Part shown: piece after piece, positions 3,375 through 32,835 of the stretch
Position numbering within the stretch: position 1 is the stretch's first letter
Layout of the letters: each line of letters begins with the position of its first letter
Source of the DNA: Escherichia phage Snoke
Sequence record: MK931441.1
Strand: one strand, 5' to 3'
DNA length: 44,454 nt
Made by a program: the position numbers and the translations under genes
Notes under the pieces: generated by a model
What the model saw: the letters and a program-made list of their open reading frames with translations, nothing else
Told to the model about the DNA's origin: nothing
Databases searched by the model: none

Positions 3375-5267
3375 ATGCTATTAACTTTAGCGCCACAGGG
3401 TTTATCTATGAGCTTACTTACATCTCTAATCAGCCACCAGATATGGCTGCAACGCACTGCATCCGGTGAGGTGAAAGACCTCGCGCCGTTCATTAAGGAG
3501 ATGCGGGACGAAATAAAACGGCAGGTGCTGTTATTCGGTGACGACGGGCGGAGCACTGCGCGACTGAATAAACTGTTACTCGACCTTGAAGAAGCGCTAA
3601 CCGGACTTACCGGCGATTGGCAAACAAAGCTGACAGAAGACCTTATGGAACTGGCGGCGTATGAGGCCGAGTGGAATGTAAAGACACTGACCACCAACGT
3701 AGATGCGGAATTTGTTACGCCTACTGCCGAACAGGTGTGGTCCGCTGCCGAGTTTCAACCCTTATCATTAAGCGACAAGCCTGTTGATTTCACTAAGCTG
3801 ATGTCGGGATGGGGTGAAACCGAAGTAGCACGTCTCGTAACCGGCGTTAAGATGGGCTTTGTTCAGGGTAAGACAACACGGCAGATTGTTAAGAATGTTG
3901 TTGGTGCTGGTGGTTTGGCGGACATTTCAGAACGTAACGCGGCTACTGTAATCCGCACCGCGCTGTCTCATGTATCCAACGAGGCCCGTAACGAGACGTA
4001 CCGCCAGAACGACGACATCATCGAGAAGTACGAGTGGGTGTCGACGCTGGACAGCCGTACCAGTACGATTTGTAGGGCCAGAGACGGAATGACGTGGGAA
4101 ATCGGTAAGGGGCCGATGCCCCCGGCCCATCCGAATTGTTTACTTGGGGACACTGTAGTATCTACCGGTAGTCCTGTTTCTAACATTTTTAAACGGGCGT
4201 ACAAAGGCACTGTAGTCTATGTCTCTACAAAGTCCGGTCGCACCTTGTCTATCACCCCAAACCACCAGGTATTGACTACCAGTGGTTGGGTTGCTTCCGG
4301 CCTTCTCAATGTAGGTGACAAGCTCGTGTGCGCTAAGGACTCTACTCTCTCTCTCAAGCATAAGGAACACAACGTTGTAGCCAAGTTCTCCGATTTGTTT
4401 AGTGCGGCTAATGTAGCGGTCAATCCTGCGGCGGTCCGTACAAGCCCAACCTCCACCGAAGACTTCCACGGCGACGGAACCGACGGCGAAGTCGAGATTG
4501 TACTTGTCGACCGCCTTTCCTGGGATAAAGTCAAGTCCGGACTGAATAAGCAAATCATTGACAAGGAACTCCCAGTGACTGCCGGCGTTGATGACTCCCT
4601 CCCTGGCTTTGGCTCTGCGAAGCAGTTCGGCATGGTCGGCCTTTCTCCCTCGGACAGCTTCGTGCGCGGCGGCAGAGAGAGCGAGGCGCTCCTCGGGAGT
4701 AGCTTTAGCCATTCTGATAAACATAGCGTCGCTACCTCCGCGAATGGTAACGCCGTTCTCTCTGAGAACGCGTATGACTGGACTACACGAAACGCCGATA
4801 ATCTTTCCGATTTCAACTGGTCCGATGCCGTTGGCGTAGAGCTTGATGATGTTGTCAATTTGGTCTTTAGTGAAGCTGATTTTTGCGGGCATGTTTATAA
4901 CCTCGAAAATGAACAGAACTGGTATCTTGCGAATGGAATTATAGCACATAACTGTCGCTCAACAACCGCGCCTGTAATCAGTTCGGAGTTCGACTTCCTC
5001 GATAAAGGCGCAAAACGCGCGGCTAAGGGCGCGGACGGCGGTATGCAGGTAAGCGCGGACACCACCTATTACGAGTTCCTGAAACAACAACCGGCATGGT
5101 TTCAGGACCAGGCGCTTGGTTCTGTTCGCGGTAAGATTTTCCGCAACAGCGGTATATCACCAGAGGAGTTTCGCGTAATATCTGTAGATGGTTTCGGGAA
5201 TCCGCTCACGCTTAAGCAGATGGCGGAACTCGATAAACGTGTTGCTGATTATCTGAAAGGGGATTAA
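3375..5267 (+). CDS. head morphogenesis protein precursor (Mu F / SPP1 gp7-like) containing an intein
   Basis: Extein carries the minor-head-protein signature DSRTSTICRARDG...PPAHPN-C-R; 630-aa precursor = about 358-aa extein plus 272-aa intein. Confidence 0.8.
   Translation: MLLTLAPQGLSMSLLTSLISHQIWLQRTASGEVKDLAPFIKEMRDEIKRQVLLFGDDGRSTARLNKLLLDLEEALTGLTGDWQTKLTEDLMELAAYEAEWNVKTLTTNVDAEFVTPTAEQVWSAAEFQPLSLSDKPVDFTKLMSGWGETEVARLVTGVKMGFVQGKTTRQIVKNVVGAGGLADISERNAATVIRTALSHVSNEARNETYRQNDDIIEKYEWVSTLDSRTSTICRARDGMTWEIGKGPMPPAHPNCLLGDTVVSTGSPVSNIFKRAYKGTVVYVSTKSGRTLSITPNHQVLTTSGWVASGLLNVGDKLVCAKDSTLSLKHKEHNVVAKFSDLFSAANVAVNPAAVRTSPTSTEDFHGDGTDGEVEIVLVDRLSWDKVKSGLNKQIIDKELPVTAGVDDSLPGFGSAKQFGMVGLSPSDSFVRGGRESEALLGSSFSHSDKHSVATSANGNAVLSENAYDWTTRNADNLSDFNWSDAVGVELDDVVNLVFSEADFCGHVYNLENEQNWYLANGIIAHNCRSTTAPVISSEFDFLDKGAKRAAKGADGGMQVSADTTYYEFLKQQPAWFQDQALGSVRGKIFRNSGISPEEFRVISVDGFGNPLTLKQMAELDKRVADYLKGD
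4137..4952 (+). mobile_element. intein (Hint domain), 272 aa
   Basis: Begins Cys1 CLLGDTVV (block A), SITPNHQVLT (block B, TxxH), ends VYNLENEQNWYLANGIIAHN (blocks F/G, terminal HN) followed by Cys+1 at 4953; splits conserved extein motif HPN|CR. Confidence 0.8.
4140..4892 (-). CDS. HTH + Vsr/DUF559-like PD-(D/E)XK endonuclease, candidate homing endonuclease encoded antisense to the intein
   Basis: Minus-strand ORF coextensive with the intein; ATG at 4892 preceded by GAGG with 8-nt spacer; N-terminal HTH (ISFTKDQIDNIIKLYANGIGPVEIGKIIGVSCSPVIRVLRENG) and nuclease signature SHWEFLVNDLL...YNLDFAVGSVAVEVFGGGW...RRRIDRYISRTKQIGELGYNVVF; ORF track gives upstream ATG at 4949 without SD. Confidence 0.6.
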   Translation of the reverse strand: MPAKISFTKDQIDNIIKLYANGIGPVEIGKIIGVSCSPVIRVLRENGVTIRGGSDAMFIRMAKATPEERLALSAAAHEAVRGRKADHAELLRRAKAREGVINAGSHWEFLVNDLLIQSGLDFIPGKAVDKYNLDFAVGSVAVEVFGGGWACTDRRRIDRYISRTKQIGELGYNVVFLMLERESRVLSAHELVTYIEKAGSNPTTGSQYLVVWGDRQGATGLCRDIDYSAFVRPFKNVRNRTTGRYYSVPK

Positions 5268-11803: not shown

Positions 11804-12216
11804 TGGGCTACTTTGAAGACTTAACCAAAGCGTTCGACGTGCCGCTGGTAGCCTTCGGGGCCACCAACGGCATCAGGGTAGCGCTTGAGAACATCGACGC
11901 TCCGACGTCAACCGATACGCCATACCTTGCGAGTTACATGCTACTGGCGGATACCGAGCAGGCCGACTTATTTTTCACAGAGCAACGCGCCGGTGTTTAT
12001 CAGGTGGACATTAACTACGCATCGGTGAAAGGTAGCGCGCCAATCAATAAAATGGCAGACTTACTTAACACGGCGTTTAAAGCAGGTAAGTCTTTTTCAC
12101 GTAACGACATCTGCGCCGAAGTGCAATCGGTTAGCCTGGGGCCGCTGATTGTAGAAAATGGATGGGCTAAAAGACCATTGTCGATTAACTTTATTGCATT
12201 CACCAAGAGGCTGTGA
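11800..12216 (+). CDS. tail terminator-like protein (putative)
   Basis: Synteny immediately upstream of major tail protein. Confidence 0.35.
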   Translation: MMGYFEDLTKAFDVPLVAFGATNGIRVALENIDAPTSTDTPYLASYMLLADTEQADLFFTEQRAGVYQVDINYASVKGSAPINKMADLLNTAFKAGKSFSRNDICAEVQSVSLGPLIVENGWAKRPLSINFIAFTKRL

Positions 12217-13385
12217 ATATGGCTACAACTCCTTTTAAGGGCGCGAATACCGCGCAATTCTATGTGGCGGAAACTACCCCGGGCGTGACACCGACTTCCC
12301 CGGTATGGTCGCCGTTGCGTAATACTGGCGGCGTTCCCGCGATTACCCGCGACACTTTGACCTCCAACGAACTGGACGGCAGCCGCGAAACTACGTCAAT
12401 TCGCACTGGTAACAAACAGGTTAGCGGTGAATACGCCATCGAGCTTAGCTCTAAAAGTCAGGATGACTGGCTGGCAGGTGCTTTAGGCTCTACGTGGCAA
12501 TCAGGTGTATCCTTAACTGACCTGTCAATTACCGTCGCACCGGCAGGCAAGACGTTCACCCGTGCTGATGGTAGCTTTATTACCGACGGCGTTGAAGTAG
12601 GCGACCTGATTGCGTTTACCGACTTAACGGGAGATAACGCAAAACCGTTCATCGTCACTGCGGTAGAGGCACTGGTAGTGACCGGTGCGGGCATCCAGCA
12701 CACTCTCACCACAGAGACCGCTACTACTGCTGCTAAGACAGGCGACAAACTGGAAACCGGTAGCCAGTGTAAGACGTTCTCTATTCTCACATGGTACAAA
12801 GGCCAGTGCGGCGGGACTGACGCGTACACGCTTACCAAAGGTGTAGAAGTTTCTGGTTTCACTGTTGAGCAGGCCGTTAACGCGATGGTAACGGGCAGCT
12901 TCCCGTTCATCGGGCGCAGCCAGGAGATTCTCACCGAGCCGCCGTCTGGTTCTGATTTCTCCTCTGTTACGTTTGGTGATGAGCCGTTCTCCTCAGTTGA
13001 CGTTTCTGTGTTCGATGGCTCTACGCCGTTGCGTTGTGATAGCCTTACCATCACCAACGACAACAGCGCGTCCGCGCAGTTCGAACTCGGCAACACTAAC
13101 GTTGCGTTTGTGGAACGTAGCCGCGCGGCCAACACCTTCTCCATCTCCGGTAAGCTGTACGACATGGCGATGATTCAGAAGTTTATCAACGAACAGCAGG
13201 TAGAGATTAACTCTATTCTGGCGGGGGTAAACGGGGCTATGTCTTTCAGTCTGAAACGTGCAGAACTCACGGCGGTTACGCCAGAGATTGGTGGTCCTGA
13301 GTCAATCACTCAGAGCATAGAAGGACAGTCCACAGGCAATCAATATCAATCTTCTATTGTAATACAGCGCATTAGCTACGCGTAA
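12213..13385 (+). CDS. major tail protein (putative)
   Basis: 390-aa ORF upstream of chaperone/tape-measure genes, followed by strong terminator. Confidence 0.55.
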   Translation: MNMATTPFKGANTAQFYVAETTPGVTPTSPVWSPLRNTGGVPAITRDTLTSNELDGSRETTSIRTGNKQVSGEYAIELSSKSQDDWLAGALGSTWQSGVSLTDLSITVAPAGKTFTRADGSFITDGVEVGDLIAFTDLTGDNAKPFIVTAVEALVVTGAGIQHTLTTETATTAAKTGDKLETGSQCKTFSILTWYKGQCGGTDAYTLTKGVEVSGFTVEQAVNAMVTGSFPFIGRSQEILTEPPSGSDFSSVTFGDEPFSSVDVSVFDGSTPLRCDSLTITNDNSASAQFELGNTNVAFVERSRAANTFSISGKLYDMAMIQKFINEQQVEINSILAGVNGAMSFSLKRAELTAVTPEIGGPESITQSIEGQSTGNQYQSSIVIQRISYA

Positions 13386-13413: not shown

Positions 13414-13587
13414 TTATTCCTTCAATTGCATTGGGTAGAAGTTAACGAGTTCTCCTTTATCCCGAAGCCGTGAATATTCATCTAACGCATCTTCCCGGCT
13501 ACTTACAGCATAGATATCATTCCACTCGTCCCATTCTTTGTCGTATACGCGGATTATGTATATTGTTTTCATTACATTCTTACTCAT
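13414..13587 (-). CDS. hypothetical protein (accessory island)
   Basis: Minus-strand ORF; internal ATG at 13587 has SD AGGAG 8 nt upstream; AT-rich. Confidence 0.35.
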   Translation of the reverse strand: MSKNVMKTIYIIRVYDKEWDEWNDIYAVSSREDALDEYSRLRDKGELVNFYPMQLKE

Positions 13588-13810: not shown

Positions 13811-14000
13811 TGTTAACTCTCTTAAATCTGGCTATGCCTGACTCGTTAATGTTGCCTATTTCAAAGAAGCTGCGATATTTAGGCGAATACATTCTTACAT
13901 CGCCATTCTCTAGGGTGACCCCTTCATATACAGCACCTACTTCGAATCCATTTTTCTCCGCGTACGGACTCACATCGGTGCATTCATACATGTCTTTCAT
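13800..14000 (-). CDS. hypothetical protein (accessory island)
   Basis: Minus-strand ORF, coupled to upstream phosphoesterase gene. Confidence 0.3.
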   Translation of the reverse strand: MKDMYECTDVSPYAEKNGFEVGAVYEGVTLENGDVRMYSPKYRSFFEIGNINESGIARFKRVNSDK

Positions 14001-15127
14001 CCAAGCATCTCCGGTGAAATAGTTAAACGTGCGACCTCGCCATATTCGGCGCTATAAGTAATTACATTTGCACTACGACCTGACATCCATCCGCCGCGAG
14101 AGGCGTAGGCGTCTTTAGCCGCCAGGGTGCGGTGTTGCTCAACAACCATGTTACGGCTTTCTACAATCTTCTGATGGTGCAGGTGGCCTACATGGGCGTA
14201 GCTGTAAACACTCTCGCCGAACGCTTTGCGGAACTTGGCAATCATAACCGGTTCGATAGCGTCGAATCGTGCCTTATGCCCGTGGTGAAAGAACAGCGTC
14301 GTTTTGCCGTGTTGCACCATCTTGTAAACATCTGGCGACGTGTCGACGAACACCCGCGGCTCGTTGTCGTACAGCGTACTAAACATCTCAGCTAACCAAA
14401 TCATTCCGCTTTCGTCGTGGTTTCCTTGCACGATAAGCAAGCGAACATTTTTATGCTTAACCAGCGCCATACCGACAACACGGCGTACCATACGAATCAT
14501 GTAGCGGACCAGTTTCTGATAACGAGTGTCCGCATCAAGAACATGACCACTCGCTGGCGTAACCGCATCCAGACTATCGAAGTGCGCGAAGTCACCCAGC
14601 AGGTTAATAACCCCAGTTCCTGCATCTGGTGCTTTCTGAAACGCCGCATCGAACCATCGGGAGAACAGGTCTTCTGCAATCTTCATGTCCCAGTCGTCGC
14701 CGCTCTCGTCGGCCCAGGCCAGCATACCGAGATGGAAATCAGATACAGTGTAAAGATTAAGTAGTTTATCGTCACGTTTGGCGCGAACGGCTTTAACAGG
14801 CGCAACCGGCGTAATCTCTGACTTCATGCCCTCGATTACAGCTTTCATCAACTCGACCTGACGTTCAGCGTCAGTGTCTGTCTTAACCCATTGCAACTTA
14901 GTGTTGCCGAACTCGTCCACAAGCGACGACGTTCCTTTAATCTTGTAGCCGTCCGGGACAAGATGGCTAACGTCACGACCGTGACCTACGCCTTTCTTCG
15001 CCAGCTTCGCTTTACGGATACGAATAACTCGGTCTGAGATGCCGTATTTACGGGATATGTCGATAATCTTTGTTCCGGCGTTCAATTCTTCCTGTAACTG
15101 TTCGTCGGTTATTTTAATCCGGGCCAT
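13997..15127 (-). CDS. HTH domain + calcineurin-like metallophosphoesterase
   Basis: Phosphoesterase motifs in order: SDFHLG, GDFAHFD, GNHDE, HHGH, GHLHH; N-terminal HTH (ITDEQLQEELNAGTKIIDISRKYGISDRVIRIRKAK); SD GAGGAAG upstream. Confidence 0.7.
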   Translation of the reverse strand: MARIKITDEQLQEELNAGTKIIDISRKYGISDRVIRIRKAKLAKKGVGHGRDVSHLVPDGYKIKGTSSLVDEFGNTKLQWVKTDTDAERQVELMKAVIEGMKSEITPVAPVKAVRAKRDDKLLNLYTVSDFHLGMLAWADESGDDWDMKIAEDLFSRWFDAAFQKAPDAGTGVINLLGDFAHFDSLDAVTPASGHVLDADTRYQKLVRYMIRMVRRVVGMALVKHKNVRLLIVQGNHDESGMIWLAEMFSTLYDNEPRVFVDTSPDVYKMVQHGKTTLFFHHGHKARFDAIEPVMIAKFRKAFGESVYSYAHVGHLHHQKIVESRNMVVEQHRTLAAKDAYASRGGWMSGRSANVITYSAEYGEVARLTISPEMLG

Positions 15128-15166: not shown

Positions 15167-15358
15167 TCACTTCTCTTTGACATTCGAGTTGCAAGCCCAG
15201 ATTAAAATAAATACCCACGGCAGCAGAACCCAGCCAAGAAACAGATTGGCCATGAATATCGCTAATTTCGCTTTATGACCCCGCATATGGGCCACTAAAA
15301 ACGGGATAAAATAAACTAAAACGATAATGATTAAGAAGAACATAGTAATACCTGTCAT
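15167..15358 (-). CDS. small membrane protein, superinfection-immunity-like
   Basis: 63 aa from internal ATG with SD AGGAG; two hydrophobic segments and motif AHMRGHKAKLAIFMANLFLGWVLLPWVFILIWA; ORF track start at 15496 would include the promoter. Confidence 0.5.
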   Translation of the reverse strand: MTGITMFFLIIIVLVYFIPFLVAHMRGHKAKLAIFMANLFLGWVLLPWVFILIWACNSNVKEK

Positions 15359-15428: not shown

Positions 15429-15536
15429 GTAATGTGATAGAATAATTTTGCGCCTAGTGTCGCACACGAAAAGCGGGTGGTTCCCGTCTGGCGCATTTAC
15501 CATTAACCTGTAACCTCTTAACCAAAGGATTAAAGA

Positions 15537-15953
15537 ATGAAACTTTCTGATTTTTATTACGAAGCTGAGGCAGAAAAAGGCGCCCGTATGCCGATACCAC
15601 TGAAAGACGGCACCGATTCAGGGGAGTGGCTGAACGTTGTTTCACCGGAGGCAGACGTTGCTGTTAAAGCTATGAGGGCGTTTACACTTGCGTACCGCGC
15701 GGCATTAGGTAAATTGAAACCGCTTCGCGATAAATGCGAGGAACTGAAAGATTTCTCGGAATACAACATCAAGATGGAAGACGCCGCAACGGACCTTAAC
15801 CGCCAGTTAGCGCTTGAACTGGTTAACGGTTGGAGTCTCGACGATGAATTTAATAAAGAGAACCTGAATACTCTTTTCTCACAATATAAACGACTCGCTG
15901 AACACGTTGTTGTTTTCCACAATGAACAGCTTCACCAATTGCAGGAAAAGTAG
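15537..15953 (+). CDS. tail assembly chaperone (G-like)
   Basis: 138-aa acidic protein immediately upstream of tape measure gene; followed by overlapping -1 frame ORF. Confidence 0.65.
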   Translation: MKLSDFYYEAEAEKGARMPIPLKDGTDSGEWLNVVSPEADVAVKAMRAFTLAYRAALGKLKPLRDKCEELKDFSEYNIKMEDAATDLNRQLALELVNGWSLDDEFNKENLNTLFSQYKRLAEHVVVFHNEQLHQLQEK

Positions 15954-16318
15954 ACGCGTTGCTCCAGTTTGCCCGTTGGAACTTCATAACCCGCCACAAA
16001 CGGCGGGAGTTTGACAGTATCGCCGACGGGCATAAAGCCGCGCTAATTGCTATGGGGGTTATGCAAGACGCGCCGGAAGCAACGCAGGACACAGGGCCGG
16101 AATGCCCCCCTGAGCTATTAACCACCTTCGAGAAGTACAGGGAAATCAAATTCACCCGCCGAGTGGACGATGATGGCATCAAGATGTACCCGCGCGAACA
16201 GTTAAGATGGTCGGATTTAGTGGCATACAGCACCGTTTCAGGCCAGAATATAGGCATGTTCGAATCTGACATCATCATGAGCTTAGACGCTATTTTCGAG
16301 GGTAGAAACGATGGCTGA
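15926..16318 (+). CDS. tail assembly chaperone extension reached by -1 frameshift (GT-like product)
   Basis: -1 frame open from 15926; candidate slip site GGAAAAG (15944-15950) immediately before the G stop codon TAG. Confidence 0.4.
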   Translation, partial: TASPIAGKVDALLQFARWNFITRHKRREFDSIADGHKAALIAMGVMQDAPEATQDTGPECPPELLTTFEKYREIKFTRRVDDDGIKMYPREQLRWSDLVAYSTVSGQNIGMFESDIIMSLDAIFEGRNDG

Positions 16319-30872: not shown

Positions 30873-31499
30873 TTAGCGGCGACGACGTTCGCGGCGCGGT
30901 GCTTCATCTTCTTCGTCGTCTTCCAGGTCAGTAACACTTGCAGAGACTTTAGAACCGCCAAACGCTTTACCTTCGCCGGCGTATTTAATCGCCAGCAGGT
31001 TAACGCCGAGGACTTTATATTTCTGGCTGAACCAGATTTCAACGCTTACGTTAGCGACGCAGCCGCTGTAAACCTGTTCACCTTCAATCTGTTCGCCTTC
31101 GACGTTGAAGTCAGGCTCTACCTGAGTTTCACCTTTTTTAGAGGTTACAATCAGAGGTTGTTTCTGTGCCTTCGCTTTGAAGTAGAAGCCTTCCGGGAAG
31201 TCTTCAAAAGGATTATCACGCTCGGCGATGTCCTTAATAGCACATTTATCCATGTGCTTGCCTTCGCCGTAGTTTGACTTCATCCACTTCTCGGCAGCAG
31301 CGGCCCCCAGTGCTTCCTCTACAACCGCATAAACAGTGTCGTACATTTCGTCGATTTGCGCATGGTCAGACGGCAGAATGATAGTCGCGCTGTACTGACC
31401 TTTAGTGATAGAGCCATCGTCGTTTTCACGGTCTTTTTCGCGTTCGAATACGTTAACCCATGCAGTGTTTACTTTACGCAGATTTAATTTCAGTCCCAT
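30873..31499 (-). CDS. DUF2815-like protein, possible ssDNA-binding protein
   Basis: 208 aa with acidic C-terminal tail DLEDDEEDEA; paired with Cas4-like nuclease gene as in known phage replication modules. Confidence 0.45.
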   Translation of the reverse strand: MGLKLNLRKVNTAWVNVFEREKDRENDDGSITKGQYSATIILPSDHAQIDEMYDTVYAVVEEALGAAAAEKWMKSNYGEGKHMDKCAIKDIAERDNPFEDFPEGFYFKAKAQKQPLIVTSKKGETQVEPDFNVEGEQIEGEQVYSGCVANVSVEIWFSQKYKVLGVNLLAIKYAGEGKAFGGSKVSASVTDLEDDEEDEAPRRERRRR

Positions 31500-31590: not shown

Positions 31591-32835
31591 TTATTCTAAA
31601 TCTTCTTCACTAACCTGATTCCACTCAGGCCGTTTGTCGTCTGCCGTTGCTACACATGGTGCACCTGGCTTACGTGTGATGAAGTCTTTCAGTTCTTCTT
31701 CCGGTATAACTTTAACCGCTTCGGTCGGCGTCATGAGAACGACTTTGTTCAGCATAGTGCCGTATTTCTCAGCCACCTTATCAGCGTCTTTCCACGCACG
31801 ATTACCCGGACGACCCTCGACCAGCTTGTAACCCGGCACTTTCTTGCCAGAATGCAACGCGGCAGCCATAGCTTTCTCAACCTTGTCGATGTGCTGGCGC
31901 AACAACGGCAGCTTCTCATACTCGGCGACGAGTTGCTCGGGTGTCAGTTCCAGCGCAAAGTCGTCCTCCAGTTCTTCCACCAGTACAGAATTAACAGTCT
32001 TCGTCCTGGCGACGCACTGTTCCGAGAACCGGCACCACTGGCAACCATCGACTGACGGCTTAAAGTCGGACGCTTTCAGGTTCTTCTTACCACGGAAGTA
32101 CGCATCGAGTGCTAACAGCGCGCGTTTATGTGCGAACTTAGCGAACAGTTCCAGGCCTTCAACCGAGATATCCCACTCCGACGCACCGCCAGCATACGGC
32201 TGGAAGATGACCAGACGAACAGTTGTTATGTTATATCGTCTCTTTAGTCGGCGATAAACACCGAGAGCGTAAAGCATAAGCTGCTTGTTTTCTTTCGCTT
32301 CGACACGATGCCGTCCGGTTTTCAGGTCACCAATAATGAGCATGTGCTCGTCGGTGTTCGCCAGTTCCTGCACGGCAACAAGGTCAGCGGTCCCGAACGT
32401 CTCAACGCCTTCATATCCCGGATGCAGCACCTCTGTAAGATTGACGCGCATTTCCAGCTTGGCGTAAGTCGCTACGTCGATAATCGGTTTGCAGTAGTCG
32501 GTGTACTTACGCACCTGCTCAATCATGTCCGCCGTAATAAGTACCGCACCTTTCATAGGGCTGATTAACGCCTTAATCTGGCCTTTGCCTTCATCCAGCA
32601 CGTAAGCCCCGACTTCACGCTCTAACGGCAACGCAGTGCCTTTGATGTACTGGTTAAGGTGAATCTCAGCTATGGTGTGCATGGCTGTGCCCAATACGGC
32701 GGCTTTACCTGACGTATTTGGAATGTCTTTTTCACATGCCAGTGATGCACTGCACGTCAGCCACTTCTTAGCGCCTGACGGCGACAACAGGGCGTGCACA
32801 TCGTTATTGCCGCCGCGTTCTTTTAGTTTCATCAT
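31591..32835 (-). CDS. PD-(D/E)XK exonuclease, Cas4/RecB-like (DUF2800-like)
   Basis: D-x-K motif IGDLKTG, Cys cluster CQWCRFSEQC at C-terminus plus N-terminal Cys. Confidence 0.75.
   Translation of the reverse strand: MMKLKERGGNNDVHALLSPSGAKKWLTCSASLACEKDIPNTSGKAAVLGTAMHTIAEIHLNQYIKGTALPLEREVGAYVLDEGKGQIKALISPMKGAVLITADMIEQVRKYTDYCKPIIDVATYAKLEMRVNLTEVLHPGYEGVETFGTADLVAVQELANTDEHMLIIGDLKTGRHRVEAKENKQLMLYALGVYRRLKRRYNITTVRLVIFQPYAGGASEWDISVEGLELFAKFAHKRALLALDAYFRGKKNLKASDFKPSVDGCQWCRFSEQCVARTKTVNSVLVEELEDDFALELTPEQLVAEYEKLPLLRQHIDKVEKAMAAALHSGKKVPGYKLVEGRPGNRAWKDADKVAEKYGTMLNKVVLMTPTEAVKVIPEEELKDFITRKPGAPCVATADDKRPEWNQVSEEDLE

Follow-up and report, generated by a model that had tools for sequence, protein, structure and literature searches.

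A widespread helix-turn-helix metallophosphoesterase encoded in a minus-strand island of Escherichia phage Snoke, a candidate DNA nuclease for host takeover

The genome of Escherichia phage Snoke (MK931441.1), a Kagunavirus of the Guernseyvirinae, was analyzed as a single stretch of 44,454 nucleotides, referred to here as the window. Between 13000 and 16500 its sequence shares 99.5% identity with Escherichia phage Schulenburg, and this segment includes a compact minus-strand operon of five genes in the order Imm-like gene, metallophosphoesterase (MPE) gene and three small ORFs whose stops and starts overlap. This operon is placed between the tail tube gene and the tail assembly chaperone genes, which are followed on the plus strand by the tape-measure genes (Table 1). 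The initial annotation of this DNA had described a helix-turn-helix (HTH) fused to a calcineurin-like metallophosphoesterase on a minus-strand island amid the tail genes, and both the fusion and the island were borne out. The MPE gene has an ATG start with a GAGGA ribosome-binding site upstream and 376 codons; the five MPE motifs are found in order at residues 129-134, 178-184, 235-239, 281-284 and 314-318, behind the N-terminal HTH. The gene is not new, given that an identical protein (100% amino acid identity) is already deposited and annotated as "phosphoesterase" in Schulenburg (gp025, QEG06813.1), and that the family to which it belongs is very large. The Snoke finding by itself adds little.

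Table 1. Features of the minus-strand island of Snoke and its flanks (positions in the window)
Feature	Position	Strand	Remarks
Tail tube gene (flank)	12213..13385	+	ORF call, Schulenburg annotation
Final small ORF of the island, 57 aa in the Schulenburg annotation	13414..13587	-	ORF call
Small ORF, 76 aa	13580..13810	-	phrog_2452, E 8.6e-37, positions 150-220 of 235
Small ORF, 66 aa	13800..14000	-	4-nt overlap (ATGA) of its start with the MPE stop
HTH-metallophosphoesterase (MPE) gene	13997..15127	-	376 aa plus stop, PHROG 704
MPE catalytic domain, motifs I-V	14000..14773	-	Residues 119-376
Beta-hairpin plus helix module, conserved, unclassified	14813..14956	-	Residues 58-105
N-terminal tri-helical HTH	14996..15106	-	Residues 8-44
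Imm-like superinfection-immunity membrane protein	15167..15358	-	First gene of the island, 63 aa; Imm_superinfect, phrog_1039
Tail assembly chaperone pair, two frames (flank)	15537..16318	+	phrog_15027 N- and C-terminal halves, Schulenburg annotation

The product of the first gene of the island matches Pfam Imm_superinfect with an E-value of 3.1e-13. Its ORF is open for 109 codons, up to position 15496; an AGGAG sequence and an ATG at 15358 favour the 63-residue form that is annotated in phage Shashou, and the 109-codon form would leave only ~40 bp to the divergent tail-chaperone gene. Among the small ORFs that follow the MPE gene, those of 66 and 57 residues gave no PHROG or Pfam family match, and the former is a hypothetical protein in both Schulenburg and Shashou. 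The similarity of the 76-residue ORF is limited to the last ~70 residues of phrog_2452 (235 aa) and of phrog_17613 (246 aa, 'ATPase'). It represents a domain on its own or else a remnant; that it is what is left of the dNMP-kinase-like gene of the relatives was rejected, since no similarity was found. On the plus strand, the ORFs 15537-15953 and 15959-16318 lie in different frames and correspond to the N- and C-terminal halves of phrog_15027 (259 aa), a split over adjacent ORFs that is the classic G/GT frameshift layout of tail chaperones. Promoter- and terminator-like matches at the island were no commoner than in shuffled sequence, i.e. they occur at chance level.

The Snoke protein matches PHROG 704 ("DNA repair exonuclease") with an E-value of 3.8e-164, residues 5-375 aligning with profile positions 3-389 of 390. 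The Pfam models Metallophos (21.9 bits, cut-off 27) and Metallophos_2 (18.5, cut-off 21.5) both remained under the gathering score, and membership in the MPE superfamily rests on the motifs and the fold because the family is too divergent for these models. Searches of the protein against NCBIfam and PADLOC gave nothing meaningful, and a structure search of BFVD returned uncharacterised phage proteins only. Among 1.84 billion cluster representatives, an exhaustive homologue search detected 4,595 relatives with E <= 1e-3, of which 1,146 had E <= 1e-30; the majority of the best 150 relatives listed have 370-420 residues and align to almost the entire query. When 50,697 phage records were searched with tblastn, 2,048 of them matched, 1,958 with at least 80% coverage of the protein, and 291 records encode a protein with at least 80% amino acid identity to that of Snoke. 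The positive groups include Guernseyvirinae, Dhillonvirus, Drexlerviridae, Webervirus, Vibrio siphophages, N4-like roseophages and Campylobacter phages.

From the full-length hits, 112 relatives with 32-50% identity were picked and aligned. Residues D130, H132, G178, D179, N236, H237, H282, G314 and H317 are invariant in this set, and H315, H284, H182 and D184 are conserved in more than 90% of the sequences. The initial annotation had made its reading depend on the metal-ligand residues, and these are kept, invariant or nearly so. At least 117 residues precede motif I in all 112 relatives, a count that applies to a set picked from full-length hits and not to an unbiased census.

The position of the MPE gene differs between phage groups and shows no fixed link with tail genes. 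Dhillonvirus genomes carry it with the lysis cassette on one side and the small terminase gene on the other; in Drexlerviridae it is the last gene of the replication module, immediately upstream of the holin and endolysin genes; Vibrio phages have it in a region of lysis and head genes. It is reported that the core module with the MPE gene is present in 508 of 522 Drexlerviridae (PMC13164509). Together with the 291 phage records of at least 80% identity, this persistent rather than sporadic distribution speaks against a homing endonuclease or other selfish mobile gene. The suggestion in the initial annotation of a selfish function is not supported: whole phage families persistently retain the gene by vertical descent, at differing genomic positions.

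What varies between relatives is the set of genes that comes after the MPE gene. In phages without an SH3 gene, MPE is most often followed by a polynucleotide kinase and a dNMP kinase (PMC13164509), and the same pair follows MPE in Kagunavirus relatives of Snoke. What is annotated as "polynucleotide kinase" is a HAD 3'-phosphatase domain of the PNKP type (Pfam HAD_PNKP, E 1.5e-19); the gene after it encodes a P-loop kinase-like protein in these relatives. Examples of the MPE-HAD-kinase order are found in the loci L002 (1915-2954) and L043 (5156-6312); Snoke has three small ORFs instead. Neighbours were also counted in 80 IMG/VR loci, found with a 12-sequence alignment and dereplicated into 34 groups at 85% identity. 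No dominant partner gene was found in these 80 loci, where each neighbour family occurs in at most 4 of the 34 groups, and therefore the enzyme appears to work alone. The recurrent genes directly downstream were HNH homing endonucleases, HAD_PNKP (3 of the 34 neighbourhoods) and a weakly Q-like protein. HNH homing-endonuclease genes stand directly downstream of MPE in unrelated phages (L010, 15209-15694; L006, 4741-5250; L064 and L091), which suggests that the conserved end of the MPE gene is a homing site.

A model obtained with AlphaFold2 from the 112-relative alignment (pLDDT 92.9, pTM 0.80) shows a three-helix bundle (residues 8-44), which a disordered linker connects to a beta-hairpin plus helix (58-105), followed by a catalytic domain (119-376) with the predicted alpha/beta sandwich of the MPE fold. 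In the structural ranking the proofreading exonuclease PolD DP1 came first (score 15.8), followed by Mre11 of Thermotoga maritima (15.1), SbcD of Staphylococcus aureus (15.0), LpxH (13.7) and further Mre11/SbcD entries (about 13), with the PPP protein phosphatases and the nuclease MPE of Pseudomonas putida at about 9. Motif I has the form [ST]DxH[LI]G and motif II the form GD[FL][LF]H, both Mre11-like and including the histidine of motif II. The signatures of lambda phosphatase and PPP enzymes (GDxHG, GDxxDRG, GNHE) are absent here. The superfamily fold and the metal-ligand scheme are common to the Snoke protein and the lambda Ser/Thr phosphatase NinI, whereas in an HHalign comparison NinI reached a probability of 0.8% against the PHROG 704 family, and it has no HTH. 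Of the classes that the initial annotation had left side by side, the nuclease clade (PolD DP1, Mre11, SbcD) is the one to which the fold is closest, and the lambda-phosphatase type is disfavoured by both the motifs and the structural ranking.

The resemblance to Mre11 has limits. Mre11 and SbcD carry a C-terminal capping domain and a Rad50/SbcC-binding region that the Snoke protein lacks, since its chain ends 58 residues after motif V and this stretch forms core strands; Pfam Mre11_DNA_bind and SbcD_C gave no match. A Rad50/SbcC-like ATPase was found neither in the Schulenburg annotation nor in the ORF scans of Snoke, and no ATPase recurs among the neighbours in the 80 loci. Sequence searches of the PDB with the protein and with the family profile gave marginal matches only (a GerE HTH at E 0.045, Mre11 at about 0.2); in the profile search the Mre11/SbcD entries fell at E 0.17-0.39, outside profile membership, and the HHalign probability of Escherichia coli SbcD against the family was 3%. 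PolD DP1, for its part, has an OB fold and a polymerase partner, both absent here, and in comparison with Mre11, SbcD and DP1 the N-terminal HTH and beta-hairpin module is specific to the PHROG 704 family. The protein is thus not an Mre11, and judged from sequence it represents a separate family inside the MPE superfamily.

The HTH is of a DNA-binding type, resolvase/LuxR-like. It had been noticed that it resembles the HTH of the ORF at 4140-4949, which shows a weak match to Pfam HTH_7. The HTH profile, in the register originally proposed, scored 17.1 against this ORF and 8.1 +/- 1.9 against shuffled sequences, with a probability of 20%, and BLASTP gave no alignment between the two. The two HTHs can be placed in the same class; a specific common ancestry is not upheld, the likeness being generic.

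The only member of PHROG 704 with published genetics is Bas01_0050 of Escherichia phage AugustePiccard (Bas01, Drexlerviridae; MZ501051), a full-length orthologue of 376 residues with 45% identity to the Snoke protein (E 5e-114) and the same layout of HTH plus MPE. In Bas01 the gene terminates the replication module and precedes the lysis cassette, whereas that of Snoke is inside the tail cluster. In a 2026 preprint on the reverse transcriptase DRT7/UG10, Bas1 escapers of this defence were reported to carry missense or frameshift mutations in Bas01_0050, which was termed "a nucleic acid-targeting phosphoesterase" and whose expression in E. coli was too toxic for co-expression tests; in the same work, lambda escapers of DRT7/UG10 had lost gam. 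From the genetics of Bas01_0050 and the orthology it follows that the family is dispensable in the laboratory and toxic, and that DRT7 requires it for its action on the phage. The proposal of the initial annotation that the enzyme is a DNA-targeted nuclease or phosphodiesterase is supported by the nuclease-clade fold, the fused HTH and the toxicity of this orthologue.

The nearest analogue with a known role is the pre-early protein A1 of phage T5, which is necessary and sufficient for degradation of the host DNA and by itself degrades the E. coli chromosome. A1 has been described as a predicted metallophosphatase that resembles double-strand break (DSB) repair and proofreading nucleases, with a DNA-binding domain at the N-terminus and an endonuclease domain at the C-terminus; it has also been named as a trigger of the retron Eco2, an RT-based defence. 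In 12 diverse A1 homologues the full set of MPE ligands is conserved. A1 and PHROG 704 share a DNA-binding N-terminal region followed by a C-terminal MPE domain, which is an architectural analogy only, as well as DSB-repair and proofreading nucleases as structural kin, an extended motif III (E[GS]NHD..S.WL) and a C-terminal ITY; toxicity and the link to an RT-based defence are common to A1 and Bas01_0050. In contrast, A1 (phrog_1745) has 556 residues with a longer and different N-terminal region, its motif II reads HD where PHROG 704 has GD, and it is essential, being also needed for the second step of DNA transfer, whereas Bas01_0050 is dispensable. The A1-family profile aligned with the PHROG 704 family over 63 columns (HHalign probability 41%, E 2.9e-4). 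Single sequences of SbcD, lambda phosphatase, Bxb1 gp47 and T5 A1 each gave a probability below 20% against the family; on HMM scoring the A1 proteins fell between 8.5 and -2.4 bits, a range that also takes in the controls Bxb1 gp47 (4.6) and SbcD (1.9), and no PHROG cross-match exists between 704 and phrog_1745. The relation to A1 is probably best described as a functional analogy plus a shared superfamily, not as family membership. A1 genes are followed by genes for HAD-family phosphatases (dmp or 'polynucleotide kinase'; L094, 124-3376; L098; L099), which mirrors the MPE-HAD linkage of PHROG 704.

A precedent more distant than A1 is the MPE of cluster A mycobacteriophages. Experiments on Gp48 of A10ZJ24 have shown that it is an active phosphodiesterase, is toxic and disrupts the integrity of the host genome, and the protein has been reported to act in counter-defence by silencing host defence genes. 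Gp48 and Bxb1 gp47 (phrog_221) have the same five motifs as the Snoke protein; they differ in their length of about 255 residues with motif I at the N-terminus (D10), i.e. they have no HTH module, and Bxb1 gp47 belongs to another PHROG (HHalign probability 7% against the PHROG 704 family). The papers on Metis and PUA-Cal-HAD were considered and set aside, as they deal with host-side calcineurin-like enzymes outside PHROG 704.

We favour, with confidence evenly poised between acceptance and doubt, the reading that the MPE of Snoke is an HTH-tethered, Mre11/DP1-like DNA nuclease for host takeover. The enzyme would be a stand-alone binuclear-metal phosphodiesterase of the Mre11/SbcD/PolD-DP1 structural type, predicted to be catalytically competent, in which the HTH, joined through the flexible linker and the beta-hairpin/helix module, would bring the nuclease onto duplex DNA. 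Its expression would come from the minus-strand operon itself and would not depend on the tail genes; the enzyme would act against the host DNA during takeover, as the functional counterpart of T5 A1 in T1-like phages, Dhillonvirus and Guernseyvirinae. Such a function would be accessory, not needed for growth in the laboratory, toxic for the cell and disadvantageous to the phage in hosts with DRT7/UG10. However, toxicity and DRT7 escape would fit nucleotide-pool or RNA targets as well; Snoke is without the HAD and kinase neighbours, and no partner is conserved in the 80 loci; and the orthologue, unlike A1, is dispensable, with homology to A1 supported only up to the superfamily level.

More tentatively, and with rather less expectation of being right, it can be proposed that PHROG 704 is the unrecognised A1 equivalent of T1-like phages, Dhillonvirus and Guernseyvirinae, a group of HTH-guided chromosome DNases whose activity, and not the protein itself, would be detected by DRT7/UG10, while the HAD phosphatase and the dNMP kinase would process the released nucleotides. 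The same activity might possibly also be sensed by defences that detect products of DNA breakdown. The gene ranks among the most persistent unexplained components of several large coliphage groups (among them Drexlerviridae, Dhillonvirus and Guernseyvirinae), many of which find use in phage therapy, and a host-DNA-degrading nuclease would explain the host shutdown, the sensing by DRT7/UG10 and the co-travelling HAD phosphatase and nucleotide kinase genes.

Processing of DNA ends for replication or recombination of the phage, or to counter a RecBCD-type attack, by an Mre11-like enzyme that acts without Rad50 and spares the host DNA, is in our view unlikely. The nearest folds, Mre11/SbcD and a polymerase proofreading exonuclease, would suit this role, as would the end-of-module location in Drexlerviridae, and the fact that DRT7 is escaped by loss of either Bas01_0050 or lambda Gam, a RecBCD inhibitor, suggests a shared pathway. 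The genome, however, has no Rad50/SbcC-like ATPase and already carries a phrog_69 exonuclease beside a gp2.5-like SSB/annealing protein; the gene is dispensable yet toxic by itself, and its position varies among tail cluster, lysis cassette and terminase vicinity.

That the enzyme heals ends, as a 2',3'-cyclic phosphodiesterase or 3'-phosphatase like the MPE of bacterial Pnkp, and together with Pnk-type enzymes repairs tRNA or DNA cut by defence systems, seems improbable. This idea draws on the many relatives in which a PNKP-type HAD phosphatase and a P-loop kinase are the next two genes, and on the 2',3'-cyclic phosphodiesterase activity that PMC2190708 ascribes to MPEs of the lambda-phosphatase/CthPnkp type. 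It is opposed by the lack of these neighbours in Snoke and the low frequency of HAD_PNKP in the census, by the rank of the PPP/lambda-phosphatase-like structures far under the nucleases and the near-zero profile probability of lambda phosphatase, by the absence of an RNA ligase from the annotation, and by the HTH, which suggests duplex DNA.

We consider it very improbable that the protein serves anti-defence as a phosphodiesterase by breaking down nucleotide second messengers or other small nucleotides, an option raised by the initial annotation that found no support: a conserved DNA-binding HTH has no obvious role with a small-molecule substrate, the nearest folds are nucleases, PADLOC gave no match, the gene is persistent across families and not patchy, and the sole link with a defence system found here goes in the opposite direction, as the orthologue sensitises the phage to DRT7/UG10 and its loss lets Bas01 escape. 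That the protein is instead a Ser/Thr/Tyr protein phosphatase of the lambda type, acting to reprogram host proteins, is hardly credible given the motifs and the ranking described above, and the HHpred hit of 99% to lambda phosphatase recorded by the annotators of Shashou reflects the superfamily fold.

Other features of the genome were observed outside the island. The Mu-F-like head-morphogenesis gene at 3375-5267 on the plus strand contains an intein (Pfam Intein_splicing, E 7e-10, residues 263-526), and the corresponding insert of ~818 bp (about 4131-4949) is cleanly absent from Schulenburg. The 269-residue ORF 4140-4949 on the opposite strand is nearly coextensive with this insert, so that both strands are open; besides HTH_7 it has a weak match to REase_MTES_1575. 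A free-standing HNH gene is present downstream in Schulenburg, and Snoke is without it. The recombination pair is encoded on the minus strand at 31591-32835 (the phrog_69 exonuclease, annotated as 'hypothetical' in Schulenburg) and 30873-31499 (the gp2.5-like protein).
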